Assembly (NCBI RefSeq): GCF_030684315.1
Contig: NC_081396.1
Span: 1,488,001-1,552,000, forward strand
Source of the DNA: Stegostoma tigrinum
Lineage: Eukaryota
DNA: 64,000 nucleotides
Direction: 5' to 3'
The position numbers and the translations under genes are program-made. The notes under the pieces were generated by a model. The model saw only the letters and a list, made by a program, of their open reading frames with translations. It had not been told where the DNA came from and did no database searches. Of the stretch, positions 850 through 56,120 are shown in pieces (position 1 is the stretch's first letter; each line of letters starts with the position of its first letter).

Positions 850-919
850 CAGGTGCACCAATAATAGCGATGATAGGATAAAAAATGGCAAAGATCAGTC
901 CATTTGGTGGATCGTGCAT
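850..919 (-). CDS. GPR139-like GPCR paralog 1, coding exon 1 (exon 2 lies left of the window)
   Basis: ATG at 919 gives MHDPPNGLIFAIFYPIIAIIGAP+G. The exon is 70 nt with a phase-1 GTAAGT donor at 849-844. Same length, phase and homologous peptide as the exon 1 copies at 17792-17861 and 56051-56120. Confidence 0.85.
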
Positions 920-990
920 TGCCGTTGAAAAACACAAAAAATGTTCAGTGTTGCCGAATTTTGTCCTGCTACACATTGAGGTATCCCTCA

Positions 991-1025
991 TTTATTCCGA
1001 TTGAGTGTCTCCAGAGGCATAATTA
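991..1025 (-). promoter_or_regulatory. Conserved GPCR promoter cassette (homeodomain-like + O/E-like + TATA-like)
   Basis: Minus strand reads TAATTA-TG-CCTCTGGAGA-(11 nt)-AATAAA, 72 nt before the ATG. The first 18 nt are 17/18 identical to 17685-17702. Confidence 0.7.
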
Positions 1026-1440
1026 AGCTCTGACGTTTATTTATTTACAGTTTGCTGAAGAAACAGGCTAACACACATTGTTATGCCAGAAACTTGAAAC
1101 ATCAGTAAGATGACTGATGTGATTAAAGACATCCAGACTTGTTAGCAAAGTAAGTACTCTATTTGCCTGAATGATTCGACTGGAAATTTCAACTACTTTA
1201 TGCCTAATCCGGGCATAAACTCACATAGGTTTTTTGTACCACCTTGACAATCTTTCATTTCGTTGACTACCAACTAAGTAACAAGCACAGTCTTAAAATA
1301 GTCAAAATATTTGCGCCCACTCCTTTATGAGGAGGACAGTAGCAAAACATTATGATACTGAGAAAAAAAATGTATCATCAACTTTCGTTCTAAAAAAGGC
1401 GACTCCTATTTTAAAACAATGCTCCCCAACTGTACTAACC

Positions 1441-1575
1441 AAGTGTGAAACTGGATGAACTCAGCCTGAAACGTCAGCTTTTGTGCTCCTGAGATGCTGC
1501 TTGGCCTGCTGCGTTCATCCAGCTCACACTTGGTTATCTTGGATTCTCCAGCATCTGCAGTTCCCATCATCTCTC
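1441..1575 (+). mobile_element. Penelope pLTR fragment with short inverted 5' piece
   Basis: 'gaaacgtcagcttttgtgctcctgagatgctgcttggcc...' tail; the 5' 'aagtgtgaaactggatgaac' is an inverted copy of the internal 'gttcatccagctcacactt'. Confidence 0.7.
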
Positions 1576-1865
1576 CCCAACTGTGGTGTCTCCCACACGA
1601 GAAAATGGGTATTCCAGTCTAACACCGCTGTAGATGTCTAAAAATTGCATATGCATTCTGTCAACTCTCACTCTTCCAAAAAGTTGATTTTTTTCAGGCT
1701 TCTGAACTCAGGTTCTCCCTTCAGGATGATTGGTTTCAAGATTTTGCTCCATTTTGTTACTGTCGATGCTTCTGACATGCCTTCTCTGATGATTTCTCTG
1801 CCCCTCCCCCAGTCTACCAGGTAGTTCAATGTCATGAGACCCATGAAAGATAATAACTTGCATAT

Positions 1866-1960
1866 CTATAAGATATAACAACGTGTAGAGCTGGGTGAAC
1901 ACTGCAGGGCAAGCAGCATCAGAGGGGCATCAAGACTGACGTTTTGGGCATAGACCAAAG
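1866..1960 (-). mobile_element. Penelope pLTR fragment
   Basis: 'gtgtagagctgggtgaacactgcagggcaagcagcatcagag...ctgacgttttgggcatagacc' is a decayed reverse copy of the same tail. Confidence 0.6.
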
Positions 1961-3514
1961 CATAGAACTCAAACCATAGACCTCATTTACCAAACGGTCG
2001 CGTCAACAGGAGACAAATGTATCCATCTTCAAAGCATCAGTCTTATTTTATCTTTTTCATTGCAACTACAGTGGCCAAAATAGCCTTTAACATCAGTCAA
2101 TTATTAAGTTTAGCAGTCAGCTTCCACTTCCTTTCACAGCAATCTGATCTGGTATGTGAATAAATTTATCAAAATTTCCCATCAAACTTATCGAGGTTCA
2201 ACTGTTGGCCATAGGGCCACATTACCCATACAATTGGAGTGACTTGCATTGTATTAATCATCCCTTAGGAAAACAAAACAAAAAAAAACTGAAATGACCA
2301 AATTAAGTTAGACCCAACCTCTTAAGGGATCCGATAAAAAAAAATCATAGCTTTTGATAAATGTTCAGATGTGAAGGCTGTCAATGGTTAAGGAAAGAAA
2401 ACAAACCATCACATGAAGAAGCACTGACGTTCGTGAAATTCACAACAGTATCAAAAGAGAAATTGCCTCTCCTGGTCTATTTTATAAGATTTGCAATCAT
2501 CAGTGTTGAATTCCGACTCCACTGATAAAAGACATGATCAAAATCGAACAACAGTTGGAAATTTTGAACAGCCCAGAACTGTTTTCTCTGAAATGTCTTG
2601 CCTTTATAAATGATATTCCAGAGAAATATCTGACATTAGTTTAATCGAAAAAATAGAATGCACGAGGAGGCAATGGTTTCTCTCTATTGAACTGTTGCAA
2701 TTTGAAATTGTCAGACTCTTTTAAATCCACGTCACCAAAATAATAAAACCACTGTGGAATTTGCTGTATCTGAATCCATCCGCCATCAGACAGGCGTTTG
2801 AGCCAATTCACATAATGGCCCATTATAAAAGCAAATGTCACGAAGTGACGGATGCTTACTTTGAAATGAAATAGCCTGAAATAATTCTCAGAAAATTAAG
2901 ATAGAACAAGATTGTGTCCCTGATCGGTGGAAAGACAAATAGATGCAAACATAGACTGGAGCTACACTGTGGTGATAAAATGCAGCAGAAAGCAGACATT
3001 AGTTCATAAAAATGCTAAAATTGTCATGAGAGGTTGCAAAATGAAGCATATGGAACCCTGAGATATATTAAGCGGGACATTGCGTACAAACCAAAGAAAT
3101 TATGCTAAATTTGTAGAACATACTTTCACTCCAACTGGAATATTAGGTCGAGATCTGGACAAGATCATTTAGGACTGAATGTGTGAAGGCAAGATAGAAG
3201 ATGCATGAAGGTCAGCAGGAATTATTTCAGGTTCCTGGGAGTTCAAGTTCGCACAAGTACAACATTTTTTTCCGAATAGAAGAGAGGGTTGGGTGGTGGG
3301 AGGGGGAAAGATTTGAAGAGATGTTTTAAAATGATGAGGAGTCTGAATACAGCAGAGAAAGTTAAACGACTCCCATTGCTGGAAGGAGCAGCATTATTGT
3401 TGATGCTGGAATCTAATCTGAAGACAAGAGAAAAATGCTTGAGATCGCAGCAGATCAGGCAGCATACATGGAGAAACAGAGAGTTAACATTTCGAAACTA
3501 GGTAGCTCTCTTTC

Positions 3515-3810
3515 TATCCTTGGTTAGAACTGCTGCCTCCCTGCACCAGTAATCCAAATTCAATGTTTCCCTTGGGCGGCTGTCTCTGTGTAGTTTGCAC
3601 ATTCTCCCTGTGTCTGCGAGAAATTACTCTGGGCACAGTGATTTACTCCCATAGTCCAAATTGCCTGTCGTGACTAGGATGGTGAACGTACAGTAACCGT
3701 GGGAATTGCAGGATCACAGGATAAGGTATGGGTTTGGTGCGAAGCTCTTAGACGAACCAATATAAATTCAATGGACCGAATGACCTTCTTACACACTGTC
3801 GGAACTCTTT
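3515..3810 (+). mobile_element. HE1-like tRNA-derived SINE (decayed)
   Basis: 'ggttagaactgctgcctc...ctgtgtagtttgcacattctccctgtgtctgcg...cccatagtccaaa' with a LINE-derived tail 'atggaccgaatgaccttcttacacactgt'. Confidence 0.65.
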
Positions 3811-5829
3811 TTGTAAAAAAAACAGTTTCACAGAATGTTTCCAAAACATAATTGGATATGTTCAATACAGGTTAAATATGTCAAGTTCTGCATGAAGAGA
3901 AATCGTATTGTAATTTCAGAGATGAGGGACATGGGCAAAGTGATTAATTTACAAATATTTCATTTTAAAGTAGTATTTCCATTTTACTTGATGAAAGGTA
4001 AAGTCCATTCTACTTTCAGTAAGATATTTTCTATCCATCATGCGTGAGTGTGATTAAGCTGGATTTTCTCATGCTCAGTGGAAGATTCAGTAGGAATGGC
4101 AGATTTAGTGAAACAAACTGTCAATTGTCAAAAATATACACTTTTTTTATTTGTCATCTTAATATGTTATGAGAGTACTGCCTAACAGCCGTTCAATTTT
4201 TTTATGCTCCTTCATCAAGGTAGCCGTTTACATTTACACTTCACATTCATTAAAAGTTACATTTTAATTTTGTTTCATTTCAGAACCTAATTTCGTTTGT
4301 TTGAAGTCTTTTCCAAAGTGGGAACTTGGCTCACAAAAATCCAATTTTCAGTTTGTTACAGCTTGTGTTGATTCTGCTGTAGTTTCATTGTTACTCACGA
4401 GGGAAAGAAGCTTCTGAATCTCTGGGATCTTCAAGTCAGGACAATTCTGTTTCTCCTCCACGTACTTTGCACTTCTGCATTTTACGTTATATAGAATTTT
4501 CAGGAACAGGACTGGCTAACTGGACCTAAATTGAACACGACCAGTGTATGCACTCCAGACGAATTGTTCTCCACGCTTGCAATAATAAAATACTTCCACA
4601 CAAAGTGCCATGCTCTTAAATTCCTTTCTTCACCTTGAAATTTTCCTCAGCCTGAAAATTGCATCATTTCCTCCAGCTCCTGTGCTTCATTTATCAATGA
4701 GCTCTGAAACCGAACGGGTCGTCCCTTTTCTTTAAAAATAAGAGTCTCATTAATTTGTCGGTTTGTTCTGTTATTGAACATATGAATTCATAGCTCTTTG
4801 CTTTGCACTCAAATGCAAAATGACGGTCTTCCATACTTACCTCTTTGAACCCATGAATGAAGTAAAATGTTTCAGTGAATTTTGTTTACGACTGCTTCTC
4901 TTCCATTGGAAAGTGGAGCTGTCTTGTCGAACTCTTCAGGTTAGCACGTAGCGTTATGTAACTCTTTTTCAGCCACACAGGGAAGAGAAATCTTGCCAGA
5001 GCTGGCCAACAGAACGTGAATCATGTCAGGATATTTCACCTTACAACCTGCTTTGATTTTACAATAATTATGGCTGACGCTTGACCAGATTACCACCACA
5101 GTTAATTAAAAAAACATATTTCTTTATTATTCATTAATTGGATATGAAAAGCATTATCCAGGCCAGTGCTTATTGTCTTTCACTAATTGCCATGGAGAAG
5201 GTGTGGGAATGAACAGCCTAATTCAACAACTGTAGACCTCAGGCAGAAGCACACCATAACGTCTGCTTGGAAGGATGTTCAAAGGTTTTGACCCAGACAT
5301 TGTGAAGGACATTTTGTTTCTTTTTCTTTTGCTTCCCAACAAGTCTATATTTCAATGTTTAACATGTCATGATTAGTTGTTACATATACTCACGAATGTT
5401 CAAAAATCCCGTGGTCTTTTTACAAGAATTAATGAACTAATAGTTAAGGTTAAATAAAAAAAGAAAGAGCCCGACTATATTAATTTATAGTCTGTTAAAA
5501 ACAATGACATTAATCTTTTGAGACGTCTTTAATTTATTTATGGAATGCGGCCAAAGGGGGTCTTTTATTCTGTATCTATTGCGACATGTAAGCCACACTG
5601 TGTGAGGATGGCTGATTTGCTTCCCTGTGTACACTATTGAAACATACTTTTTTTATTTGCTTACAATCATAGCAATGTGGTAGCCATTAAACCTTTGTTT
5701 TAAAAAGACTTTTGCTGAAATAATTCAAAATTCACCTTGTTTAGATCCACCCCAAATCTCCATAGCATGAGGCTTGGCTTTCACATAGCAAATACAATGA
5801 AAATGCTGTAACTCTGCTGGTTCCCCTCA

Positions 5830-6075
5830 ACTGTGACTCTAAATGGAACACTTTACTCTGTCTTGACAGACGCATCATGCGTACCAACAAAGATCTAAAT
5901 GTATTCTACACCGTTCAGCGTGACACATTTCTGTATTTTGTGAAATGATTCTCTGCTAGCGCGGACAATGTCTGGAGAAGTCTTAAGTCACCGGTGCTTG
6001 TGTGTGTGTCTCGATCGTGTATGATATACATTAGGTTTCACACTAGTCCACAGTGGGCTCTGCTCTTCCAAAGCC
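5830..6075 (+). pseudogene. Highly decayed TCR V-segment relic A
   Basis: Remnants of LY..(R)Q, 'ttc tct gct' (FSA) and 'gtg tat gat..aca tta ggt tt', then CACACTA (6039-6045) at the heptamer position and nonamer-like TCCAAAGCC 21 nt later. Confidence 0.4.
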
Positions 6076-6252
6076 AAGAAAGAACTCTCAACTCCTTCTT
6101 GATTCATTTAGCCAATGTGGGTGTCGCTGATGTAGCAGTTTGTTATCTCTTTCCAATTGCTAAAGAGCGAAAAGCAAACAAGTGTTGGGCTGATCTGGAT
6201 TCACCTTGACAGAAGCATGGTTTATATCCTGCTCCCAAAAATAAAACTGCAA

Positions 6253-6382
6253 NNNNNNNNNNNNNNNNNNNNNNNNNNNNNNNNNNNNNNNNNNNNNNNN
6301 NNNNNNNNNNNNNNNNNNNNNNNNNNNNNNNNNNNNNNNNNNNNNNNNNNNNNNNNNNNNNNNNNNNNNNNNNNNNNNNNNN
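6253..6382. other. Assembly gap
   Basis: Run of N. Confidence 1.
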
Positions 6383-7081
6383 CAGTCTTGAGTTGTAATT
6401 GATCAGGAGAAAGAACTAACCTTGATTATTAACGGGGCACAGGTGTAACACGATTCGATTGTTTAGTGTGATTTTATGCTTTGATAGTCAACACCATCCC
6501 GGATATATGCAAGGAGATATAAGCACACGATGACAATATTCTGACTGACCACAGTAAAACAAAAATAAAATCAAAAACTCACTAGACTAGAAAAACATCC
6601 CCTGGCTGACAGAACTGATCAATTATTTAAATTTTAATGACACTAAAAAGAAAACAAAAGAAATCAATTTTCAAGTCCCTGTCTTTTGAATCTGTTTTAT
6701 TATAAACCTCCAAACAATCGCTAAAATGAACCAGCAATACTGAATAGACTTGAAATCTTTCTATAAATGGCTCGTCTGTCAGTCTTCGATGTCCATTCAT
6801 TTCGGGAGATGCTTTATTGTGCATTTGTCGCCATATGTAAGCCACATTCTGTGAGGGTGGCAGATTTGCTTCCTTAAATACATCAGCGAACCATATATTA
6901 ATTTCTGGCTTTTGTTCGTATTAGTAATGTTGCCAATGGAACTTCTTTTTTGAGAAAAAAAATCATGCTTAGTAATATAATTCAAAACTCACCTTGGTTA
7001 GATCCACCTCACATCTGCAATGCATTAAGCTTGGTTTTTGCATGGTGAACACAGTTACAGCACAACGACTCTCCTGCTTCT

Positions 7082-7332
7082 TTCCACTGTGACATCAAAT
7101 GGATCGCTATACGCTGCGTCAACAGATGTTTCATGGATTCCAGCAATGATCTGAAGATATTCTCGAGCAGTCAGAGCATTACATCTCCATTTTGTCTAGA
7201 AAGATTCACTGCTGACTCAGCAAAGTCTGGAAATCTCTTCAGTGGCTGGTACTCTTCTGTCTATCTCGATTGTGTATTACTCTACCTTATGTTTGACACG
7301 AACCCTTAAATGCAGTCAATACTTCCAAACCC
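7082..7332 (+). pseudogene. Highly decayed TCR V-segment relic B
   Basis: 'aga ttc act gct gac' (RFTAD) and 'ctg tct atc tcg att gtg tat tac tct acc tta', close to LSDSAVYYCAL codons; then gacacga + 22 nt + TCCAAACCC as a degenerate RSS. Confidence 0.45.
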
Positions 7333-9879
7333 AACAAAAAGGGCTCTCAAAACATTTTTGATTCCTCTATCCGATGTGAGTGTCGCTGATATAACTGTTT
7401 CTTATCCTTTCCAAACTACCAAAGACAGAGAACATTTAACACCTAATCTGGATTCGCCACGACAAGCTGATAGTTCATAATATGTTCCCAAATGTAAAAG
7501 TGAATCCGAGATGTGTTATCTTAAAAACAACAGCTCAATTTGGAAGTGTCTTGGAGTGTAACTCATCAGAAGAATAAAACCGCCTTTATCTTTAACTGGG
7601 GACGGCCTGTGACACATAGGAAATTAAACTGATTTACAACAGATGGAATCCTGCCAAACAGATATAGCCCCACAAATGGCAGTGTTCGTATTGACATGAG
7701 TTTAAAAAATCAACAACTCACTAGACTGTAAAGACATTGCCAGACTGACTGGACTGATCAATTAATTCTGCTTTAATAACAGTTAAATCAAAACCTTACT
7801 TTTTTAGTCCATATCTGTTGAAATTGTTCTTTCTGAGCCTCTGAACAATCAGTAAAATCGACCAGCAAAACCAACCAGAACTGACATCTTCATAAAAACG
7901 ACTTTTCTTTTTGTTCAGGAAAGAGTGCTTAAAACAGAAATTCGGATCGAAATGAAACCTCATTAAAACAAAACTACCGCCAAACATACAATTCAGAATC
8001 CTGACGCCAGGAATTTCTAATTTAATTTTAGAAAGTTATATTGCAGGATACTCTCCACTCTGACACTTCATTTTTCTTTCAGTGACGGCATATAAAACTG
8101 AATACAAAATCCCCAGCATTAAGCAGGATGAGAGACTGTGGTGTAATCTGGGGACTTCATGGTTCTCCATTCCACTTGTTAGAGAATACGTTGTGAGAGC
8201 ATTGTGACTAGAGCCAGTCATTACATTGTGAATTCACTGACACAATCACAGGGAAGACTTGAACTTTCACAGGCATTCTGTATTTTTAGTCCTCAGCATA
8301 TTACATGTAATAAATTGCTCTGATCATGGCTCAGGCTGTTGGGTAGGTCGTGTGATGCAGACAACATGGGATCCACAGTAACCTGCAATGGAATGCTTTA
8401 AATTCTGAAAAAAGTTGATGCGATCATTTCACATCACAGTAATCAGTAGGTAAATAAATAAACCAGAACAACAACGGATGCAGGCGTCCTGAGCTATCAA
8501 ATCACTAGTTTATAGTGTAAAAATATGTATTTTTAAGTGTTCACAACAAAATATTGTCGATATACAATATGTTAAATTCAGGGATCACATCCAGGCAGAT
8601 GACGACAGTAGAGGCAAAGAATAATCTCTCTCTACCTCATTTAAACAAATGATCCCCCGCCTAACCCCTTCAATGGTTTCAATTTGCAATAATATTGAAA
8701 ATCGATATTCATTGATTTATTAGGCTCTAATATTCAGAGTTCGCAATTGCAGTGACACAGAATGAAACAATCAGCGAAAGGACACAGAACACTGAGGGAA
8801 ATCTGTGTTTAGCCTTGGATATAACGTTTAAAGCCTAAAACTATTGAACGCATATATTGTTTGCAAACAGGGCCTAACACAGAAACGTACACTCATCAAG
8901 AAACCCTCGGGGCAGGGGCTGTGTTAAGTCTACAAAATGTAGGATAGGAAAAGAGATGGTCACCATTGCAGGAAGTACATATAGATGTCGCCATAAACGA
9001 TAGAAGGGAAGGGAACTCCTGGACAACAGCTGGTCACAAAAACAGGGCACATTCTATGTCAAACCAACGAGGGTAAATCTACTGCTCACAGGCGTGGCGG
9101 TCAGAATTTCATGGAAGCATTGAGTGAACATCAAATTTTCAATTGACTTTACAATCAAACTAAAATAAGAATCTCACCATAACACCAAAGAAATGTCTCA
9201 ATTTGGGCGTCACTGATATTTTGGCCAAATGCATCACAGCGTCGTCCTAAGCAAAAAAATGTTTATAACCACCATTTGTTCCAAAACGCAACTGTGTGCT
9301 AAAACATCTAACTAAATTTGAACCACTTTTCCTGCCTCAAAACACTTGATACGTGCTGTATTCGTCATATCACGATCGAAAAATATAATTATAACCGAGA
9401 AACACAGGAAGGATTTGTAGGGATTTGTCAGGGCTGGAAAACGAACGATGAGAAAAGTTCGATTGATCTGTGTTTCTTCCTTGGATCTGAAGAGTTTGAG
9501 GGGAAATTTGCTTGTCGTGTTCCATTCGTTTGAGTGAATTGAAGAAAGTTATTTTATTGCCCTATATGTAGTGGCTCGGGGACAACAATATAAATTCATT
9601 TATACAGGTGATGAAGGGAGATGATTTTTTTAAATCCAGAAAATGCAAGTGCTCTGGAACTCTACATAAATAACAGATGAAGAAAGTTTCAAAACGTGTA
9701 ACAACGGTATACACCTTAAATCCTCAACCTCAAACGTTTGTTTTCTATAAGCTATGCTGAGAGTTTCTTCTTGTAGTTCTTGAAATAAAACAAATCGAAA
9801 TTAAGTTCTCCCAGCACCATGTTTGAGCAGGAATATTGTGGAATCAAGACAATTTCTAATTTTCTTGAGAAGCGTTGTT

Positions 9880-10675: not shown

Positions 10676-10699
10676 ACAGAGCTCTAGAATTTCAGCTAA

Positions 10700-16465: not shown

Positions 16466-16594
16466 CGTGCTGTATGCCTTTCTGCCGCGATGACAGTTAG
16501 CCTCACCGCCTCTCTCATTCCATGGCAGATGTGTGATCCCTGTGGTTCAATTAGGCTACAAGCGATTTTCTTCAACTGGCCATGTCTGTGTTCA

Positions 16595-17684: not shown

Positions 17685-17719
17685 TAATTATCCCTCTGGA
17701 GACTCCCACTAGGAATAAA
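17685..17719 (+). promoter_or_regulatory. Conserved GPCR promoter cassette
   Basis: TAATTA-TC-CCTCTGGAGA-(11 nt)-AATAAA, 73 nt before the start-codon position (17792). Confidence 0.7.
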
Positions 17720-17791
17720 TGAAGGAGAACTTGAATGTTGAGCAGTGTTGAGCTACACACTTGGAGGAAACAATTTTGCTTCTAAAAGGTG

Positions 17792-17861
17792 ATTCACGGG
17801 AAAGCCACTGAAACCTTCTATGCCATCTGTTATCCTATTATCGCGGTTATCGGTGTTCCTG
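17792..17861 (+). CDS. GPR139-like GPCR paralog 2, exon 1 (start codon ATG>ATT)
   Basis: (I)HGKATETFYAICYPIIAVIGVP+G, 70 nt, GTAAGG donor at 17862. An in-frame TAA at 17783-17785 excludes an upstream ATG. Confidence 0.75.
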
Positions 17862-19274
17862 GTAAGGAATATGTAAAAAAAAAACATATTTATTCTTGTG
17901 AAGCAAATTGTCTCCTCTTTCAGGACAAAAATGACATTTTTGCTACAACATTAAATGCTGTCTGAATAAGGACATAAACTAATTCCCAATATATTTCTGT
18001 GCCTTTTAAGTAATTGTACTCCGTGGTACTCAATGAGAGCACATCATTTGAGCTGGGTCCATTGAACATTAAAGGATACAATTCAATTTTTTATTCGTTA
18101 TTCATGGAATTACTATTGAGCCAATGACTGAAAAATGGATCTTATTGTGGAACTTGCGATATCAATGTGTCATCATGGTGGAAGTTAGTTTTTACACCAT
18201 GACAGCAATCTGCAAACTTATCTATGTTTTTAAAATAATACTATATCTTGCCATACAGTGATATGCAGTTAGTACTGTTGTCTCAATGCAGTATGGAAAA
18301 TTAATTTTGACAACATAATCACCACACTACCTGAATTGTAATAACAACATATTTCCAATCAATGTAGGAATTTGTCTTGCAATCTCAGAATGAAAGAGGT
18401 ATCAGGAGCAGTATAGTGAGGTCTAATCGTTTTTTCCTCATTTTTGTTGAACTATTTGGAATTAAGCTCAGAAACTATTGAAAGTTTAAGACACACTTGC
18501 AAGATGTTTCATCTGCTGTGTTTGTTGTTTGCACGTCGAGATTTGTGCAGTTTAAGTAGCAATAGATTTGATGACTATGGAATGGGATTTCCCTGGAAAG
18601 GTTTACATTTGTTGACACTCCCTGCTTATTAGCTTGGAAGGTAGACTTACTGTAGCTGCATTTCATGTGGTGTGGTCAATTGCAGTTCAAATATATCTAT
18701 ATTTTTTACTCAGAGATGCAAATTCCTTATTCAAGACGAAAGGTATCTCTGGTGACGGAGGTTTGTTAGAAGGAACGTCTTAAGCAAGAAAGAAAAGAGG
18801 GATTATATGAGTAACTAAATACCAGAGACTTAGACTTTCACAGTTAAATTCACAAATGACCGTGATAAAGAGTTGAAAATCAGAAATGCAGAAGGTACGA
18901 CAATTAGAGGGTCTCTGAGAAATATGGTTGTTCTGGAACTTCAGTAGGACCTCAGTAGAGAGAGGATGAGGCGTTTCAAATGTCGAAGTTCCATGATGTC
19001 AAATCCTTGAAAATACCAGTCTAGGAGCCAATTTAGGTGAATAAACACAAAGCAGCTGGGTCGACAGGGATTGTCATGAATAAAAGCAACGAGTTGCAAA
19101 TCGTTTGCTGAAATATTAGTACAGTGTCGTGAGAGCATATTTTGTGGTGGGATCAATGTTTATGCTTTAAAGTGGCAAACAAATTCAAAATGTTTCAGGA
19201 TATGTGGAATTCGCAGATAGTATGCGATAGACCGGGCCATTGCAATCAGCAATTGGAGAGATGAGCTCAGTCAG

Positions 19275-19750
19275 CAATAGAATCAGAGAGCTGTACAGAA
19301 TGGAAACAGACCCTTTTGTCCAACTTATCCATGCCGACCAGATTTCTAACATTGGCCTCTTCCCATTTGTCAGTCGTTGGCTCACATTCGTAAAAGCTAT
19401 TACTATTCATGTACACATCCAGATGCCTTTTAATTGTCTTAATTGCACCAGCAGCCATCATTTCCACTGGCTGCTCATTCCAAATACGCACCACCCTCTG
19501 CGTGAAAAATTGATAACTTAAGTCCCTTATACATCTTTCCCCTCTCACTTTAAGCCTACACCCTCTAATAAAGGGCTCCGTTGCTGTGAATAAAATACCT
19601 TTGTTATTCATTCTATGTTTGCCCACCATGATTTGATTAACTTCTCTCAGTTCACCCCTCAACCTCCGATGCTCCAGGGAAAATCATTCCCGGTTATTGA
19701 GCCTATCGCTTCAGCTAAAACCCTTTAAACTCAGCAACACACTCAAAAAT
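19275..19750 (-). mobile_element. CR1/HER1 LINE 3' fragment in the GPCR intron
   Basis: Minus-strand peptide 'RGCRLKVRGER...FFTQRVVRIWNEQP', typical of the CR1 ORF2 C-terminus. Confidence 0.75.
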
Positions 19751-19785
19751 CATTGAGAAAAAAACACTCTTCTTCTTTTCTACAG

Positions 19786-20690
19786 CAAACCTGGCAGTGA
19801 TCATAATCCTATCGCAAGGACGATGTGGTCTTTCTCATTGCATCACCATCTATCTGCCCGCGTCAGCTGTGACCGACTTCCTTGTTATCATTTCTGGCTG
19901 TATCCTCAACAGAATTGGTGGAATCTACTTTTCGAATAGTGTTATGTTTACTACCCAAGGGTGCACCCTTAGTACAGTGCTCATTTATACCACTCGCGAT
20001 GGGTCAGTTTGGCTTACTGTGGCCTTCACCATCGACCGCTTTGTGTCTATCCGTTGTCCCAGCCTAAAAATTAAGTATTGCACCCTAAAAACTGCTTCAT
20101 GGATCATAGGAATGCTCTGTGTCCTGAGCTGCGTCAAGAACGTCCCATATTATTTTGTCTTTCAGCCATTGTACGTGGTGGATGGAGTGCCATGGTTCTG
20201 CGACATCAAACCTATCTGTTACACATCTCCTGCCTGGCAGGCTTATGACTGGCTGGACCATATCTTAACTCCCTGTCTTCCGTTCCTTCTGATTCTGCTC
20301 CTGAATATCCTGACAGCGAGATACATCTTGGCAGCGAGCAGAATTCGTCAGAAGCTCTGTGTCACCAAGAATCATGGAGACTTAGAGATGACCAACCGCA
20401 AAAAGTCCATTGTCCTGCTCTTCGCCATCTCCCTTAGCTTCCTACTCTTGTGGGTAGCCTATATTGTGCATTATCTCTATGGACAGCTTACAGGTGAGGG
20501 ATATACAACGCCAAATGATCCATGGTACAGCTTTCAAGAGATGACCAACATGTTCCAGTTAGTCAACTCCTTGAACAATGTCTTCATCTTTGTTGTGACT
20601 CAGAAGAGATTCCGGGAGGAGGCGAAGAATCTAATAATGCATCCCTTCACTTGGCTCATTGGATGTTTTAAACATTGCAAAATAGACTGA
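19786..20690 (+). CDS. GPR139-like GPCR paralog 2, exon 2 (open frame; gene possibly pseudogenising)
   Basis: Acceptor 'cttttctacAG' ends at 19785. Frame continues ANLAVIIILSQGRCGLS...SVWLTVAFTIDRF...TPCLPFLLILLLN...FLLLW...NNVFIF.TQKRFR with seven hydrophobic segments. Spliced CDS is 975 nt (324 aa). Confidence 0.9.
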
Positions 20691-20754
20691 TTGGTCTTTT
20701 TTGTTCGTTGTTTCAAATCTATCATTGTGGCCTGTTGTGTCACACTCTTTGTCT

Positions 20755-23430: not shown

Positions 23431-23583
23431 NNNNNNNNNNNNNNNNNNNNNNNNNNNNNNNNNNNNNNNNNNNNNNNNNNNNNNNNNNNNNNNNNNNNNN
23501 NNNNNNNNNNNNNNNNNNNNNNNNNNNNNNNNNNNNNNNNNNNNNNNNNNNNNNNNNNNNNNNNNNNNNNNNNNNNNNNNNNN
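23431..23583. other. Assembly gap
   Basis: Run of N. Confidence 1.
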
Positions 23584-26320: not shown

Positions 26321-26475
26321 GGTACTTGATATTTTAATGAGAGCCATGCAAAGGTAAAGGAAACTGATCTACTAGGTTGCACAGTTTTGACACCGGAGCG
26401 ATAAAATCAAGCCGATTCGGGTATTCATTACTCCTATCTCGACTGTCACAACCATCTACTTTTTATGGATCCACA

Positions 26476-27572
26476 CAGAAGGCCAAACAGCATCTCAGGA
26501 GCACAAAAGCTGACGTTTCGTGCCTAGACCCTTCATCAGAGAGGGGCATGGGAAGAGGGAACTGGAATAAATAGGGAGAGAAGGGGACGCGGACCGAAGA
26601 TGGAGAGAAAACAAGATAGGTAGAGAGGAGAGTATAGGTGGAGAGGTAGGGAGGGGATAGGTCAGTCCAGGGAATATGGACAGGTCAAGGAGGCAGGATG
26701 AGGTGGTAGGTAGGAAATGAAGGTGCGGCTTGAGGTGGGAGGAAGGTATGGGTGAGAGGATGAACAGGTTAGGGAAGCAGAGACAGGCTGGGCTGGTTTT
26801 GGGACGCAGTCGGGGGATGGGACGAGCTGGGCTGGTTTTGGGATGCAGTCGGTGAAGGGGGAGATTTTGAGGCTTGTGAACTCCACATTGATAACTTTGT
26901 GCTGCAGGGTTCCCAAGCGGAATATGAGTTGCTGTTCCTGTAACCTTCGGGTGGCATCATTGTGGCTCTGCAGGAGGCAAATGATGGACATGTCATCTGA
27001 GGAATGGGAAGGGGAGTTGAAATGGTTCGCGACTGGGAGGTGCAGTTGTTTGTTGTGAACTGAGCGGAGGTGTTCTGCCAAGCGGTTCCCAAACCTCCGC
27101 TTGGTTTCTTCAATGTAGAGGAAGCCACACCGGGTGCAATGGATATAATATATCACATTGGCAGATGTGCAGGTGAACTGCATCCCAAAAGGAGACCAGC
27201 CTGTCTCTGCTTCCATAACCTGTTCTTCCTCTCACCCATCCCTTCCTCCCACCTCAAGCCGCACCTCCATTTCCGACCTACCACCTCATCCCGCCTCCTT
27301 GACTTGTCCATCTTCCCTGGACTGACGTATCCCCTCCCTACCTCCCCACCTATACTCTCCTCTCTACCTATCTTGTTTTCTCTCCATCTTCAGTCCCCCG
27401 CCTCCTCTGTCCCTATTTAGTCCACTTACCTCTCCCCATCCCTCTCTCTGATGAAGCGTCTAGGCCCAAAACATCAGCGTTTGTGCTCCTGAGATGCTGC
27501 TTGACCTGCTGCGTTCATCCAGCTCCACACTTTGTTTTCTTGGATTCTCCAGCATCTCCAGTTCCTATTATC
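26476..27572. mobile_element. Penelope (Neptune-type) element with ~315-bp inverted arms
   Basis: Arms ~26480-26791 and ~27196-27510 are reverse complements; hammerhead-like motifs at ~26509-26538 (-) and ~27448-27478 (+). Confidence 0.85.
26860..27185 (-). pseudogene. GIY-YIG endonuclease domain of the Penelope element
   Basis: FTCTSANVIYYIHCTRCGFLYIEETKRRFGNRLAEH...PVANHFNS...RRLQEQQLIFRLGTL. Confidence 0.85.
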
Positions 27573-28701: not shown

Positions 28702-28832
28702 NNNNNNNNNNNNNNNNNNNNNNNNNNNNNNNNNNNNNNNNNNNNNNNNNNNNNNNNNNNNNNNNNNNNNNNNNNNNNNNNNNNNNNNNNNNNNNNNNNN
28801 NNNNNNNNNNNNNNNNNNNNNNNNNNNNNNNN
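28702..28832. other. Assembly gap within a (TG)n-like tract
   Basis: Run of N flanked by TG-rich sequence. Confidence 1.
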
Positions 28833-45818: not shown

Positions 45819-45899
45819 GTGAGTCAGGAAATAATTTGTTAGCGCATGTTTCATCTGTTTTACTCAGATTTTCGACAACCTAATTATTTTTTGTTGCAG

Positions 45900-46205: not shown

Positions 46206-46246
46206 CACACTGATACAAAGGTTCAGTCAGCCCGTATACAAAATCC
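46206..46246 (+). other. Recombination signal sequence (23-type, spacer lengthened to 25)
   Basis: Heptamer CACACTG at 46206-46212 and nonamer ACAAAATCC at 46238-46246; the spacer ends in 'gtat', an apparent 2-nt duplication. Confidence 0.85.
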
Positions 46247-47039: not shown

Positions 47040-50000
47040 TGGTTAGGAAATCGTGGTCATGGAAGAAGGAAGCTGTGTCATCAGCGTTGTTTTGTAAGTT
47101 GTCATCACCTGAAAAGATTTGACAAATTTGAAGGAACTGGGAGGATGTGATGCAGTTCTTGCAAGGCATGGGATGTGCTGAGCTGCAGTGAGCGGGGGTG
47201 GGCGGGGGGGGGGGTGCGGGTTATGTGAGTCAATAGCTTTGTAGTGGCTGGTAGTGGACAGCTTATACACTGAAATGGAGACAGACAGAGATCAAGAAAA
47301 GGAAGGAATGCGTCCCAAATTGATGATCTGAAAGTTACAGAGGTTGGAAATGGGCAACAAAATTAATAACATTTTCAACGTTCTGGAATGAATTTCAAAC
47401 AACACTGAAGCAGTCGTCGACATATCGAAAAAAAAAGAAAAATAAGTTGTGGCACGGAGACATTGTCAGACTGGATTAAGGATCTTTCCAGATACCCCAT
47501 AATGAAGCTCAGATAACTGGAACCCATGTATTTGCCCACAAACACTCCTTTGAATTGGCCGAATTGAGATAAATCAAAGAAGAAATTGCTCAGTAAGCGA
47601 ACGGGACCAGTTCAGCAGATGAGAGTTGTCGTGGAAGCTGACAATTCAGGCCTCTGTTGGATGAAAATATCGGGAGCTGTCAGACCATCATAGTGGAGAA
47701 CGAAGTTATTGAGGGATTGGTCATCTGTGGTGGACAGGATGCATTTGAACCTGTAAACTGCAAACTGAGTATGTTGGACGACATCCGAGGAATCACAGAT
47801 ACGCAAAAAGAAGATGTTGACCAGCGGAGGGAGGATGGAGTCAAGGTAGGAGGAAATGAGCAAAATGGGGCAGGAACAGTCTGATAGAATGGGCCTACCA
47901 CTGGAGTTTGGGAGTAAGGCAGGATCGGTTGGTCCAAGGTGGGAACAAATCTAATTTGGAGGAAGTGTGTGTTGGGAGGGAGATATCCAGAGGTAATGAC
48001 GTCGATTATCGTCCAGGCGACAATAGCTTGATGTCCCGACGTACGGGCATCATCAAGTGGGTGATAGAAAGACATGCTTAGGAGCAGGTGTGTAGACTTC
48101 ACAAAGTAAGGATCAGTACGCCCTGCTACAACAGCACCATTTTTGTTGACTGGTTTGAGAACAAAATTAGATTGCAAATAAGTGTGCAAAGTGTGGCAAG
48201 TTTCGATGGGGTCAGGTTAGAGTGGGTGAGAGGACCAGAGAAATTGAAACGGCTCAGGGCATGACGCTAGATTTCAATGAAGTGATTGACAGTACGTAAG
48301 AGGCTGGGAAGAGGTACAGGTGAAGGTAGAATATTGGAGTCAAGTGAAGTGGTCAGTTTAACGAGGGCGATGTTCCCGCCTGAAGAAGCAAGCATGGAAA
48401 CAGAGGCAGTGGGGAAAAAATGTTCTAAATTATGATGAGCCCTGAATTCATTAAGTTTGGGGCATTAGGGTATGAAGTAGAGTCATTTGCCGACGACTGT
48501 ACATTCAGCATCAGAGATGGGAAGGTCAGCAACATCAGTGACCACAAGGCAGGATTCGCAGGAGTGGACACAGCATCTCAGAAAAAAAAGTGATGGCATC
48601 TCAGGGCTTTGCAGTTGGCTGGAAACAAAAATAAAGTGAGAACAACGAAAATTACAGCACAGGAATAGGCCCTTCAGGTCTCCAATTCTACAGTGATCCA
48701 GATCGCCTATCTAAAGCTGTCATCTATTTTCCAAGGATGTGTATCCCTCCGCCATTGTGCCTGTCTCTACCTCATCAGCAGGCAACGCGTTCCAGGCACC
48801 CACCAGCTTCTGTGTAAAGAACTTGCCACGCATATCTCCCTTAAGTTTTTCCCCTCTCACCTTGAAATCGTCACCCCTAGTAACTGAGTCTCCAACTCTG
48901 GGAAATGGCTTCTTGCTATCCACACTGTCTATACATCTCATGCTTTTGTGGAGCTCAAACTGGTTCCCCTGTTCCTCCTCTGGTAACCTTTTCCCTTATA
49001 ATGTAATTCGTCATAATCTGCTCAAACCCTCTTCACAACTAGTGTCCTCCATACCAGGCAACATCCTGTGAACCTGCTCTGCACCCTCTCCACAGCATCC
49101 ACAAACTTTTGATAATATGGTAACCAGAACTGCACACAGTATTCCAACACTGGAATAGGCCCTTCAGTCCTCGAAACCTACGGTGATCAAGATCCTAGAT
49201 CTAAAGTTGTCGCCTATTTTCCAGAGGATGTGTATCCCTCTGCTCCCTACCCATTTATGTGTCTGCCTAGATAAATCTTAGATGACAGACGAAAGTCCGA
49301 TATAAATGTAACATGACCTGCCAACTCTAGTACTCAATACCGCATCCGATGAATGAAAGCATGTCGTATACCTTCTTTTCCACTCTATCGAAATGCCTCG
49401 CCAACTTCAGGGTACAATAGACCTGAACAGCCAGACCTCACTGTGCGCCAATTTTCCCCAGGGCTTTTCCATTTACTGTATAGTTCAGAAGGAGAGGTCC
49501 GCAGGACTGACACTACAGTCCGTAAGTTGTTCGAGTTGCACTTCTCAATGTCTGTAAAAATGAGCTGACAGTTTTAGCTGACGTGAAGGATGAGGTGAAA
49601 CTGGGGAATTATGCAGTTTTGAGAGATGGTCAGCCAAGATTGCTGCAGAGTGGGTTCGAGTGTGTAAATATGCCAGTGAATGACGGTGATTATGGTTCAC
49701 AGGATTTGGCGGGAATAGCAGTCCAAGGTAACTTGTATGCCCCGAAGATATTTGTAACCTTGGGTGGATTTGAAATACGAAGTGTGAAACAGTTGATCCC
49801 GACCAAGAACTTCCTGTAGCCGGTCATTTGAATTATCCTGTTGGAAACTCGACATGTTTGTCCTCAGCATGTCGTCGTGTGGCCGTGAGACACAGCATCA
49901 ACCAGAGGATAACGTCTCATCTTCAGACTACGCACTGTAGAACATTTTGTAGGCCATATTGAGTTCAACACCTTTTACTTGTTTGCCATTTCTTCTTTTC

Positions 50001-50340
50001 CTTTTAGCTTGTTATCATGCCCTCCTCTCCCCCAATCCCAATAATGGTTCTTTCAAGTCTGACAGGAGACACACCATTGTTATGCTCTTCGCAAATTCTG
50101 ATCACTTAATCTGAACTATTAGCATCTTTTCTCCACCAGCACTCTATACCCACTAACCCCACACCCCTACAAATGGTAAGTTAAATGTTCTCTTCACACT
50201 TCACTTCAGCCCTGCAGAAGATCCATATCGGCGAAAAAAGTTTGATTGCTCGATCTCCATGGATGCTGTTGGTCCCTCTGTGAGATCCAGAATCTGTTGT
50301 TTTCGGTGCAGATCCCAGTATCTGCAGGGAATTGTTCCTA
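47040..50340 (-). mobile_element. Decayed Penelope element with nested CR1 3' fragments (~48640-49480)
   Basis: Minus-strand Penelope RT relic ('VLKPVNKNGAVVAGRTD.Y', ~48150). CR1 peptide 'VTRGDDFKVRGEKLKGDMRGKFFTQKLVGAWNALP' (48720-48941). A second copy of the same LINE tail at ~49150-49285. Confidence 0.6.
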
Positions 50341-51348
50341 CATTTTGTTGAATTGACTGCCATGTATGTTCAAGGAATGCCTACCGTGAAAACGTTTTGT
50401 TCTTTCCTCTGACAGGAGTTCTGCTTGACTTTTTCACAATGTATGCCTTCATTGTTCTCCATTTAACTGCTGGTTTTCAACAAGGAGTTGCCAAAACTCA
50501 CTCCAACAGCAATGTTCTCTTCCTCAGCAGCAGCCAACAACTGATACTTACCCTGCATCGATTTCAACTCATTTTTCTCCCTTCTGTTCTGGTGAGGATT
50601 GTGGCAAATGTTCATGCTACCAGTTCCACACAGTTGAGTGCAGTTTCACTTCAGCAATCTGAAACATTCATTTGGCTCCAACTGTAGAGTCACCATGTTT
50701 TCACTAGTTTACAGGGGTATTCTAAAATGGAAAGATATTACAGCTCTACGTTTTGCCTGCACGTCGAAACTTATTTAATGAGCTGAGAGGCTGTGAACGA
50801 TGGTCCTCCATTGCTAGACCAACTGGTATATCAACAAACGTCACCCTATTTGCATCTGCATTTCAACTTAAATGTCCTCACGCCAAAATCATAACGACAG
50901 TCTCCATCACCGTGTAATCTTCACTTGTCAAGTGACACCCACAGACCTCAGCAAAATCCGGCAAAAATCTCACTCTGAAGTAAAAGGTTGTGATTTCAAC
51001 TCGCAATATTTATGAAAACAGAATGTGGAATTGCATTACGCAGCCTTGATGCATTTTTATCTTTCAATTTGAGAGAGCATCCCGCATTGAACATTTGGAA
51101 ACAGTTAATAAATATAGGGCAGAACAACTGATTTGAGGCTTTAAACATTGAGGAAAAAAATTGGAAATGCGAGTTCACAAAAAGCCTCGTGGTCTGATTG
51201 CTTAATCGTTGTCATATAACAGACTATAAATTAGGCCGCTTAACGTGTACTTGGGAGAATTAAATAACAATTGTTTTTCCTTGAAAGTTGAAAGCACATT
51301 TCTTTCCAGATACTGTGTGGCAAGCAATCCTGAACAATTAGGAATAAT

Positions 51349-51590
51349 CCCCTCCCTACCTCCCCACCTATACTCTCCTCTCTACCTGTCTTCTTTTCTC
51401 TCCATTTTCAGTCCACCTCCCGCTCTCTCCCTATTTATTCCACTTCCCTCACCCCATCCCCGTCTCTGATGAAGAGTCGAGGCCCGAAACGTCAGCTTTT
51501 GTGCTCCTGAGATGCTGCTTGGCCTGCTGTGTTTATCCAGCTCCACACTTCGTTATCTTGGATTCTAAAGCATCTGCAGTTCCCATTATC
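51349..51590 (+). mobile_element. Penelope 3' tail with hammerhead motif
   Basis: Close match to 27330-27572; CTGATGA-A-GAGTC-GA-GGCCC-GAAAC-GTC at 51466-51493. Confidence 0.8.
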
Positions 51591-52109
51591 AGTGATACAA
51601 TTAAGAATAACACTGGGTTTTCTTCTGGATTGTTTACTGTCTTGGACAGTATGTAATGATACAGTATAGAGGGATATTTATGTTGGAATTTGTCAATGCC
51701 TTGTCTGCATGACAGAGATTTGTGTGAAACAAGTTTTATTCTTTGTTATCATTGACAGTGTTTGAACGAATGTTTCCAGCATAGTTCTCTGTGTTCAACA
51801 TTTTTGCTGATTAAAAGACTTGCTTGATCATCAATATTGAAAGTAATATCTTTATGAATCTTGTACAAACCTACAAACTACTGCAGGCAGAATGAGCAAA
51901 CTATCCATCCCATCACGTGACTGCTGTTGCGTGAAGGAGATAATTACTGTGGATTGATGTCAGCATTAACTTTAGAATCATAGCAACACTTCCATTCTGA
52001 CAAATCTAACACTCTAAATTGATCAATGCTGAATATATCAATGCCAGCACTGCCTGATTTTTTTGACTTGGGCACTGCTGCAACATTAAGAAACATCATC
52101 TCAAAAAAG

Positions 52110-53560
52110 ATCTTCGAAGGTCAATGACAGTCAACGTTTCGCAATAGTTGGACTGCAAACGTGGCAAGAAATGCCCAATGTTAATTCGACTGAATGTTTT
52201 GATCACACCCTGTCGTGTAATGGCATGACTGTGAATGACTCACAGTTTTTTCACTGGTAAAGTGGGCATGCTTCACAGGAGTTTTAACCATCAAATTTGA
52301 CAGTGGAAAAGGAAGTGGGGATGACCTTTAGAAGGGACAAGAGTCAGAATCTCGGAAGGATTGATTTTCACTGACAAGAACCTGGTCAATAAATGACCAA
52401 TAATGCAACAGATTAACATCAGAGAAGCACAAGACACCACCTTTGAATAGAATCTGGACAGACTTGGTGATCTCTGATGATCGCAGAATTCAACAGTTCT
52501 GAGAGCATAGAGACTGCGACAGGACTTCAAAATTAGGAGATGAAATTGCTAAAATCGTGAAGCCTCCAGACAGAAAGGCAGTGAGGGTATGTGAATAAAT
52601 TGGATTAGACTGACTAAAACTGTGGACAGCAAATCCTTAGGATGGGTTTAAATTGAATTCTCAGTTACAGGAGCCATCTCAGTGGCCAGCAAGCGGCCTG
52701 AAATGATTCCTGTATGAACATATCTTTCATTCAATGGTGAATATTGAGCCATAAGCAATGAGTTTTGAAGTTAAAAAGAAGCCATTTTTGAGCATGGAAA
52801 ATCAAAGAGGTGGACTCTTTCAGTTCCAGAATAGTGAAACAGATTATTTCGTCCCGCTCAGTGTCATATTTCACTTTCTTCACCTTTCACAGCAAACTTG
52901 TTGGCGATTGTAATCCTAGCTCGACTTTGACCAGAAACAACATTGGAAAAGCAATATAAAATCTGCGTTGACAACAGCAAGTGAAAATTTTATCATTTTG
53001 GGGTGTGTACATAATATGCCTTACCCAATGTGTTGTCAAGCACACAAAAAGTGCGAAATTGGATTATGACTGAATATGTCCCATGTGTTTGAATGAAAGC
53101 AGTTGCGACAAGACTCATCAAGATTGACACAGTCCAAGGCAAATAGCTTGGTCGATTTGCACACCATCCTCAACTTTCAACTGTTTCTCCATCAATCACC
53201 GAAGAACAGTTGCAACAGTATCTACCTTCCATCAGTTGCAACTATCGGGACTTCCATCAAAAAAATGCAAGCAGTGAAAAATACAATCCCGCAGGGAAAA
53301 CGAGACGATGCAAGGGGAATCTAGCAGCTTGAAATTCTCCTCCAAGCCACATACCATCGCGACTTAGAATGACATCAGTTCTTCTGCAGTGCCATTGAGT
53401 CAAGATGGATGGTACCCTTTCTCATATAGCATTGTGACCACCCTACACGCTGAAGAATAGGTTCGTTTGAAGTAGGGATTTCACATGAACTTGTTCGAGA
53501 GCGATTGGGGATAGGCAAGAGGTTCCGTTCCTGCTCGCGATGTTCATATCGTATGACTGC
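52110..53560 (+). mobile_element. Old CR1/L2-like LINE relic interrupted by the inverted duplication
   Basis: Collinear remnants on both sides of 52248-52924: '...gtggcaag...aatggcatgact' then 'ttgaccagaaac...cacagtccaaggcaaatagc...tccaagccacataccatcgcgacttag'. Confidence 0.5.
52248..52924 (+). repeat. Inverted duplication, arm 1 (677 bp)
   Basis: Reverse complement of 54835-55511 with about three substitutions seen; the twin ORFs 52291..52530 (-) and 55229..55468 (+) differ at one residue. Confidence 0.95.
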
Positions 53561-53964
53561 ATTAATCAAAATGCACTTCATATGATCAAGGCTATAACCT
53601 TTGTTTTCAGAAACAGACAACATTTCAACCTATTTTGGCTAAATTGTGTTTAAGAAAGAAAGGAATAAGGTAAGGGGGTAGGAAAGAAGAAAAACAGAAT
53701 TGAAAAAAGCTGATAAGTGGCAGAATATGTTCATGTATTTTGCAGTCGGATTGTCAAAGAGCAGCAGAAAATGTGTAGTGTTAGGTTATAAAACACACAG
53801 CTGAGCAAGTAAATAGTAATTTCGTTGTAATGATATGATATAAGTGATACGTATCGGCCCTGAACGACAGACAGATTTTTAAAACATTAAATTTCGGAGC
53901 AGGCAGTGTTTCATACACAGTTGCACGGGAAATATTGGTAGGACAGTTTTCTGTTTTGCTCTGC

Positions 53965-54866
53965 CTATCGTTTTATGTAGGCGATGAGTATTTGGAAGGG
54001 GCATGTCAATAGCTTCTTCAGTTCCTTTCTGAACATTTTCTGCGACACCACATAAATGAAGATGTTGTTGCAGGAACTAATTAACATGAACATGTTGGTA
54101 GTTTCTTGAAGGATGTACTGTGGGGCTCCAAAGTTCAGGCTGCTGACGTACTCATCGCGTGCAACCAATCTGTAAAGGAAACGTCCGATATAGGTGGCCC
54201 AAAGGAGGAGGAAACTGAGCGTGACGGCAAACAGCAGGACGATTGACCTCTTACGGTTAGCCATCTCTATGTCATCACGATTTGCAGTGCTCAGAAGCCT
54301 CTTTCGTGCTCTGCTCGCTGCAAGGATGTGCCTGACAATCAGGACGTTGAGAAGCAGAATGAGGAGGAAAGGGAGAAAAGGGCTTAAGATACGGTCGAGC
54401 CAGTAGTATGATTGCCAGGCAGACGCAGTATGGAAATGGGGCTTGATGTTACAGAACCAGGGCACACCATCCAGAATGTATAAGGGTTCGTAGATAAAGT
54501 AGTATGGAATGTTCTTAATGCAGATAAAAATACAAATGATTCCGATGACTAGTGATGCAGTTTTCTCAGTGCAGTAAATGGACTTCATGCTCTGGCAGCA
54601 GAAGGACATAAACCGATCAATTGTGAAGGCCACTGTCAGCCATACAGAACCATCCCGAGCTGCATAGACCATCACAGCATTGATGCTGCAGCCGGGGGTG
54701 GTAGATAGGACACTGTAGCTAAAATAGATGCTGCCAATTCTGTTTAATACGCACCCGGTAAAGATGACAAAGAAATCTGCCACCGCTATTGCCTTCAGAT
54801 AGTAAGTGATGCATCGAGACAGTCCACATTGTCCTCGAGCTAGGATTACAATCGCCAACAAGTTTG
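53965..54866 (-). CDS. GPR139-like GPCR paralog 3, exon 2 (intact)
   Basis: Acceptor 'cacctttcacAG' ends at 54867. ANLLAIVILARGQCGLSRCITYYL...SVWLTVAFTIDRF...SPFLPFLLILLLN...SSCNNIFIY. Spliced CDS is 972 nt (323 aa), about 60% identical to paralog 2 by eye. Confidence 0.92.
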
Positions 54867-55511
54867 CTGTGAAAGGTGAAGAAAGTGAAATATGACACTG
54901 AGCGGGACGAAATAATCTGTTTCACTATTCTGGAACTGAAAGAGTCCACCTCTTTGATTTTCCATGCTCAAAAATGGCTTCTTTTTAACTTCAAAACTCA
55001 TTGCTTATGGCTCAATATTCACCATTGAATGAAAGATATGTTCATACAGGAATCATTTCAGGCCGCTTGCTGGCCACTGAGATGGCTCCTGTAACTGAGA
55101 ATTCAATTTAAACCCATCCTAAGGATTTGCTGCCCACAGTTTTAGTCAGTCTAATCCAATTTATTCACATACCCTCACTGCCTTTCTGTCTGGAGGCTTC
55201 ACGATTTTAGCAATTTCATCTCCTAATTTTGAAGTCCTGTCGCAGTCTCTATGCTCTCAGAACTGTTGAATTCTGCGATCATCAGAGATCACCAAGTCTG
55301 TCAAGATTCTATTCAAAGGTGGTGTCTTGTGCTTCTCTGATGTTAATCTGTTGCATTATTGGTCATTTATTGACCAGGTTCTCGTCAGTGAAAATCAATC
55401 CTTCCGAGATTCTGACTCTTGTCCCTTCTAAAGGTCATCCCCACTTCCTTTTCCACTGTCAAATTTGATGGTTAAAACTCCTGTGAAGCATGCCCACTTT
55501 ACCAGTGAAAA
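54835..55511 (-). repeat. Inverted duplication, arm 2 (donor: intron 3' end, acceptor and first 32 nt of exon 2)
   Basis: Reverse complement of 52248-52924. Confidence 0.95.
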
Positions 55512-56050
55512 TTACAGATAAGCAACCATTCTTCCCTTTTTTCAGAAACTATTGCATCCGCTGATGATATAAACAGATGATAATACCTTGAAAGTCGAAC
55601 ATGCAAAACTCCTCTGAAGAAGACAATGTAAGAATTAACTTTAAATCTTTTGAAAACACTCATTTCTTCCTGCATCTCTTTTGTCATTCTAGATGAAAAG
55701 CCAATGGTGCTGAATTATCACGAAACATAACAACGTTACTATTTCATCTCACATTGAATACATTAGATTGCACCTCAATACATTATGACAGAAGCTCATG
55801 TTAGAAATTGAATGGTCTAAAATTCAAGCGTTTTATTACTTAAGAAATATCAGCTTTACAGAAGTGCACTTCAAGGTACTGATTTTTAAAGTTCTGAAAT
55901 ACCAGTGCAAAGAATGCCATAACGTACCATAACGCAATCTAATATTGTGAGCTGTTATTCTCGGACAACACCAAATATTAGAAACAATATGAAAGAGAAG
56001 AACAAATACATATGAAGAAAATAAAGATTTCATTGGAATCCATTAATTAC

Positions 56051-56120
56051 CAGGTGCGCCAATAACAGCAAGAAAGGGATACACAATGGCAAAGAAGATT
56101 CCATTTGCTGGACCATGCAT
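56051..56120 (-). CDS. GPR139-like GPCR paralog 3, exon 1
   Basis: MHGPANGIFFAIVYPFLAVIGAP+G, 70 nt, GTAATT donor at 56050-56045. Confidence 0.9.

Follow-up and report, generated by a model that had tools for sequence, protein, structure and literature searches.

A clustered receptor family multiplied in cartilaginous fishes, with members in a Stegostoma tigrinum locus, as a candidate olfactory repertoire

What is the role of the multiplied shark receptor genes that automatic annotation names 'probable GPR139'? The question is raised by a stretch of 64,000 nucleotides from Stegostoma tigrinum (contig NC_081396.1, positions 1,488,001 to 1,552,000 of the forward strand; hereafter the window), in which homologous genes for G protein-coupled receptors (GPCRs), here called copies A, B and C, lie within 56 kb. 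A preliminary description of the window had taken them for a cluster of GPR139-like receptors and a candidate chemoreceptor family. Our analysis assigns them to a class A GPCR family that forms tandem clusters and has expanded in cartilaginous fishes; on the sequence evidence, we lean slightly towards the reading that this family serves as an unrecognised olfactory receptor repertoire.

The observed gene cluster is real, with corrections to copy C and to the lost start codon of copy A. Three homologous first exons of 70 nt, each ending in G-x-P-G followed directly by GT, were found for C (minus strand), A (plus strand) and B (minus strand), so that the three paralogs in mixed orientation described before stand as first exons, the third copy being represented by exon 1 only. 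A search of all six frames of the window with the family profile revealed just two full second exons, those of A and B, and no third; copy C is therefore seen only as exon 1, and its exon 2 would lie off the window. The exons are as follows.

850..919, minus strand: copy C exon 1; ATG at 919, 23 codons plus 1 nt, GT donor at 849
17792..17861, plus strand: copy A exon 1; start codon ATT in the window, ATG in a second sample
19786..20690, plus strand: copy A exon 2; open frame from the end of transmembrane helix 1 (TM1) to the stop; 91% identity to whale-shark P0062
53965..54866, minus strand: copy B exon 2; open frame; 90% identity to whale-shark P0001
56051..56120, minus strand: copy B exon 1; ATG at 56120; spliced product of 323 amino acids

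The second exons of A and B share 59% amino-acid identity, and both genes score above the cut-off for 7tm_1, the sole Pfam domain of either. For copy B, a seven-helix fold is predicted with a mean pLDDT (predicted local distance difference test) of 87. The single phase-1 intron in TM1 at G-x-P, as first described, is present in A (1924 nt) and B (1184 nt) with GT..AG borders. The very short N-terminus was likewise borne out by annotated relatives: in 145 of 233 models the TM1 motif G-x-P-x-N lies at most 30 residues from the start, while 18 are longer and 70 have no match to the motif. Between copies C and B there are runs of N at 6253-6382, 23431-23583 and 28702-28832 which, if they are assembly gaps, could hide further copies.

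Database searches revealed that these genes have numerous relatives. The search with exon 2 of copy B returned 360 proteins; among the best 120, 117 carry shark or ray names and the other three no species name, and the prevailing automatic label of the matched proteins is 'probable GPR139'. All 120 matches listed for the family profile are chondrichthyan, the last one still scoring 497 bits; the total of 2106 for this search includes unrelated GPCRs and is not usable as a family size. When all 50% representatives were searched, 100 proteins were obtained at E <= 1e-30, and 19 of the 21 representatives looked up from inside the large clade are named chondrichthyans, among them a chimaera (P0126); the other two are shown without species. 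Counted as distinct 90% clusters per species, which gives lower bounds, the family comprises at least 48 members in Heptranchias, at least 45 in Heterodontus, at least 24 in Pristiophorus, at least 19 in Hemiscyllium, at least 15 in the next species and then fewer. The sequences support an expansion that appears confined to cartilaginous fishes (sharks, rays and chimaeras).

In the search with exon 2 of copy B, 10 of the 11 whale-shark matches share one contig size, and so do 10 of the 11 Heterodontus matches; because of this, the gene cluster is apparently conserved between species. A large, clustered and diversifying family with gene birth and loss had been proposed from the window alone, and it is upheld by the cluster numbers of Heptranchias and Heterodontus, by the shared contigs and by the ATT/ATG allele of copy A. 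Olfactory repertoires typically expand within one lineage as tandem clusters that also lose genes, and this is what is found here. No description of this expansion was found in the open-access literature (subscription papers being outside the scope), and 'receptor 139' was not found in the supplements of PMC8455134 (12 of 24 files), PMC10620051, PMC13188829 and PMC12666390. The family is present in public annotation under a misleading name, and its expansion is undescribed as far as the open literature reaches.

To which branch of the GPCRs does the family belong? Class A features are evident from the 7tm_1 domain, the seven helices and, among 233 members, Asp at position 2.50 in 232 and DRF or DRY in 221, with NxxIY replacing NPxxY. 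Human GPR139 is the best solved-structure match of the whale-shark ortholog (E 3e-11, 47 bits), GPR139 is that of the family profile (E 1e-22), and, by a narrow margin over neurotensin and neuromedin receptors, it also comes first when the predicted fold is compared (21% identity). Searches with the shark, coelacanth and salamander proteins likewise have it as their top solved structure, at just 47-70 bits. Orthology to GPR139/GPR142 was rejected because human GPR139 matches with only 47 bits and shares 21% identity, a comparison that covered GPR139 and not GPR142. The placement in the GPR139-like family proper, as first proposed, thus gives way to a separate class A branch of which GPR139, at that identity, is merely the nearest solved relative. 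Membership in the canonical OR, TAAR, V1R or V2R families was also rejected, 7tm_1 being the only Pfam domain and the listed structure matches containing neither an OR nor a TAAR.

In contrast to the low copy number of GPR139/GPR142 in mammals, sharks possess dozens of these genes. An expanded set of GPR139-like tryptophan/phenylalanine or amino-acid sensors, or of neuroendocrine receptors for one endogenous ligand class, would agree with GPR139 being the best match by sequence, profile and fold. Mutagenesis identified F3x33, H5x43, W6x48 and N7x38 as important for GPR139 activation, in a site shared by Trp and Phe (PMC5430874). Placed on the family via alignment to GPR139, W6x48 is kept in 97% of the 233 chondrichthyan members, N7x38 in 54% and Tyr or Phe at 3x33 in about two thirds, in line with such sensors. 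However, 5x43 is mostly Asp (about 60%; His 12%), the window genes A and B carry Y, D, W and N at the four positions, and the complete set F/H/W/N occurs in one member of the 233. The amino-acid (Trp/Phe) ligand of the preliminary description is unsupported for this last reason. Since pocket combinations vary widely, and one endogenous ligand would not require dozens of diverged pockets, we regard this explanation as quite improbable.

Relatives outside the cartilaginous fishes were included in an IQ-TREE phylogeny of 52 rows, 33 of them labelled chondrichthyan (three without species name), with true GPR139 and GPR142 sequences not among the rows. The chondrichthyan rows and an amphibian/sturgeon gene form one group (support 99), which coelacanth and teleost proteins join next (support 100) versus an outgroup of 11 rows, invertebrate or unnamed. 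For monophyly of the chondrichthyans by themselves the support is 67, and the amphibian/sturgeon gene is either sister to or nested in the chondrichthyan radiation. A search with the salamander relative gave 25 matches: 20 named amphibian species with a single cluster apiece, one sturgeon protein and four chondrichthyan proteins, and none in amniotes or teleosts. This single-copy gene (P0219, P0279-P0298) is an undescribed orphan receptor; it carries Asn, not Asp, at position 2.50.

The next relatives, coelacanth and teleost proteins labelled 'probable GPR139' (P0235, P0239, P0267), have a short N-terminus too. They are likely the fish and coelacanth orphans GPR210A/B, listed beside GPR139/142 by Rinne et al. 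2019 (PMC6504862). The main text of that survey contains no shark data and reports no expansion. Side matches to the Pfam families Srw/Srx and FMRFamide-receptor-like neighbours also appeared in our searches; the nematode Srw chemoreceptors presumably derive from the FMRFamide/MIP/myosuppressin receptor group. This protostome group falls into the same wider clade as GPR139/142 (PMC8557429). Expansions of class A receptors in lophotrochozoans have been read as chemoreceptors (PMC11886862), and the shark expansion would be an independent, vertebrate one.

Do the copies differ where ligands would bind? For this comparison, 23 inward-facing pocket positions were selected by generic numbering. In 31 cross-species 'ortholog' pairs, defined as mutual best matches in a sample that is incomplete and biased by the queries, pocket change relative to the whole protein was 0.51, versus 1.12 in 25 same-species best pairs (label permutation, p 0.0004). 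Paralog entropy is higher in the pocket than at other outer transmembrane positions in three species (p 0.004, 0.03 and 0.03). Many one-to-one pairs between shark genera persist at 76-97% identity with a conserved pocket, and in the amphibian single-copy gene the pocket is nearly invariant (ratio 0.07, 21 rows). The pocket residues thus behave as would be predicted for a ligand-diversifying repertoire, being kept across species and variable across paralogs. Between A and B, the ratio of nonsynonymous to synonymous divergence (dN/dS) is about 0.14 with dS near saturation, which suggests that their divergence is under purifying selection.

Signs of gene loss are found at copy A. In place of a start codon, positions 17792-17794 read ATT; a stop lies in frame 9 nt before them, no in-frame ATG offers a rescue, and the first Met is residue 77. 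Runs X1-X3, from one sample, have the same ATT as the window, whereas run X4, from a second sample, has ATG on a same-size contig with 9 differences in 1192 bases. The start loss is thus real and segregating; the reported loss of the ATG holds for the window and X1-X3 and is not fixed. An assembly error as the source of ATT was ruled out by the agreement of the three runs. At 19858-19864 the window allele encodes Pro48 and Ser50, where the X4 sample and the whale-shark ortholog have Leu at both TM2 positions, and it has Arg113, where 96% of the family has Cys; these residues suggest that the haplotype without a start codon is decaying. The X4 differences within 20372-20527 of exon 2 were left out, as they may stem from a close paralog. 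For 18775-20700, contigs of both samples contain a second, about 92% identical version of the intron end and exon 2 of A, likely a close paralog elsewhere in the genome.

At copy B, an additional element was detected that the preliminary description did not mention.

52248..52924, plus strand: inverted partial duplicate of copy B, with its intron end, acceptor and first 11 codons of exon 2; 677 bp, 3 differences, 99.6% identity

Together with its counterpart at 54835-55511 it brackets the body of copy B exon 2; exon 1 or the remainder of exon 2 was not found alongside the duplicate. Either part of copy B was duplicated recently or the assembly has folded back on itself here. If the repeats are real, the 1.9-kb segment between them could invert.

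Could the family simply have proliferated neutrally, as a duplication-prone gene in repeat-rich clusters with most copies lacking a distinct function? The null-like allele segregating in A, the fresh truncated duplicate next to B and the remnants of long interspersed nuclear elements and long terminal repeat (LTR) elements in the window would suit such a process. In contrast, the low dN/dS between A and B, pockets kept between species, conserved promoters and open frames across sharks, rays and a chimaera make it very improbable.

The conserved promoter sequence emerged from an alignment of the 300 bp that precede each start codon. All three copies share a conserved block of about 50 bp, with three-way identities of 6, 7, 3, 9 and 5 of 10 in successive windows and 0-2 of 10 in the flanks, and it has been kept although A-B synonymous sites are near saturation. 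The block contains a homeodomain-type site next to a pyrimidine-then-purine stretch resembling an EBF site, with a TATA-like GAATAAAT 28 bp downstream. A composite of neighbouring Lhx2 and Ebf sites is indispensable in the olfactory enhancers of the mouse, where its Ebf half accepts pyrimidine/purine stretches provided that the spacing is fixed (PMC5608512, PMC7804114). We derived a composite pattern from the mouse Sfaktiria Lhx2/Ebf probe (PMC5608512 supplementary file 7) and the purine/pyrimidine rule of that paper, and located it in the blocks listed below.

990..1025, minus strand: copy C promoter block; composite 1025-1009 (one mismatch), TATA-like GAATAAAT 997-990
17685..17720, plus strand: copy A promoter block; composite 17685-17701 (exact match to the mouse-derived pattern), GAATAAAT 17713-17720
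56193..56228, minus strand: copy B promoter block; composite 56228-56212 (one mismatch), GAATAAAT 56200-56193

In all three copies the composite lies at -106 to -108. Within 100-bp stretches of the window, exact matches occur in 0.26% and matches with one mismatch in 3.4%, which gives a chance of 0.3-3%. A metagenome scan for exon 1 of further members gave three matches, none of them resembling the family: two fall within long open frames on contigs rich in GC, and a TATA-like box is absent from all three. The block shared by all three copies and the segregating start loss of A are new observations; the block would raise the olfactory reading and does not prove it.

In comparison with OR, TAAR, V1R/ORA and V2R/OlfC genes, the shark family shares tandem clusters, gains and losses, a pocket kept in orthologs and variable in paralogs, and putative homeodomain plus EBF-like sites upstream. 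It differs in belonging to another class A branch, in having two exons with an intron in TM1 and in possessing almost no N-terminus, with an N-terminal sequon in 1 of 145 members. Clustering, turnover and pocket variation are alike in sentinel families of the MRGPR or formyl-peptide receptor type. By analogy with those mammalian receptors, the shark genes could encode sentinels of skin, gill, somatosensory neurons or immune cells for microbial, parasite or damage-derived peptides. Cartilaginous fishes are described as lacking MAS1-type receptors (PMC8455134), the wider GPR139 group binds aromatic peptides (PMC8557429) and, after GPR139, the nearest solved folds are peptide receptors. The conserved promoter block, in contrast, fits the olfactory-type homeodomain/EBF composite, and one-to-one pairs that persist with a conserved pocket appear slow for a host-pathogen race; we consider sentinels a serious but rather unlikely alternative.

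The sequence signatures of external chemoreceptors outside the nose, in taste buds, solitary chemosensory cells or pit organs, would equal those of an olfactory family, and in catshark, scattered cells of extra-nasal epithelia express V2R-like genes (PMC11979771). On the other hand, the homeodomain/EBF composite was described for olfactory neurons (PMC5608512, PMC7804114), and a repertoire of dozens would suit smell better than taste, so that an extra-nasal role seems improbable.

How would an olfactory repertoire of this kind work? Duplication and loss would supply new specificities: tandem copies would diverge at the pocket, useful ones would be kept and others lost, and each copy is predicted to bind different waterborne molecules. 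Ligands may be small polar or peptide-like molecules, not necessarily Trp or Phe, because Asp, Arg, Tyr, Glu and Asn abound in the pocket. Lhx2- and EBF-type factors would bind the promoter block and switch the genes on in olfactory neurons, with sparse expression in TRPC2/Go microvillous neurons of the shark nose and putative signalling via Gq or Go and phospholipase C. In catshark, 32 canonical V2R genes form the main known family (PMC11979771), and every olfactory neuron is positive for TRPC2 and Go, while expression of v2r1, the presumed co-receptor of the V2Rs, is of 'moderate frequency' (PMC10116579). In our view, which is not that of the authors, this frequency may leave room for another receptor family.

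Several points weigh against the olfactory reading. As to the promoter, the three matches represent one homologous event, the pattern was built post hoc from one published probe after the block had been seen, the composite is not enriched across the window (2 vs 1.07 expected; 26 vs 23.6), and, of the 8 positions of a canonical EBF site, 1, 2 and 2 are mismatched. Many neurons rely on EBF and homeodomain factors, as do B cells on EBF1. Furthermore, the mouse composite is more characteristic of enhancers than of promoters (PMC5608512). In the subclade of the window genes, the pocket excess is weak (Hemiscyllium, p 0.09; whale shark, ratio 1.10), and in recent paralog pairs pocket change equals, and does not exceed, that of other outer transmembrane sites (ratio 1.0). 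The 90% whale-shark orthologs of both whole genes imply a turnover slower than the term 'birth-and-death' suggests. Finally, published work on catshark reports no GPCR within the 50 most olfactory-enriched genes and explains the nose by V2Rs (PMC11979771, PMC10116579), a result tempered by the fact that receptors expressed in few cells would hardly reach such a list.

The window further contains broken pol pieces resembling LTR retroelements or endogenous retroviruses at 59515-59985 (minus strand), 62304-62687 (plus strand) and 63142-63984 (plus strand). A reverse transcriptase is encoded on the minus strand, and RNase H and an integrase zinc-binding domain on the plus strand; the opposite strands suggest two insertions. 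In addition, there are an inverted repeat pair at 26466-26810 and 27177-27521 (345 bp, 89% identical) and a direct repeat at 5720-6156 and 6977-7414 (70% identical) on either side of the gap 6253-6382.

What, then, would the family mean for the biology of sharks? They are credited with tiny odorant-receptor repertoires despite large olfactory organs, and surveys count the four known families only. The present family is not counted in the text of the shark repertoire surveys (PMC10116579, PMC11979771). If it is olfactory, this family, which numbers at least 45-48 diverged genes in some sharks and goes under the automatic label 'probable GPR139', would close that gap. The fuller proposal, which we hold to be evenly balanced between true and false, is that of a fifth and perhaps the largest chondrichthyan olfactory family, derived from the GPR139/peptide-receptor branch, driven by Lhx2/EBF and single-copy in bony vertebrates; the view of a nose with a few dozen V2Rs would then be wrong, and a GPCR branch would have been recruited into smell in a further, independent event. 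If the role is immune or somatosensory instead, the family would still be among the largest undescribed receptor expansions in jawed vertebrates.

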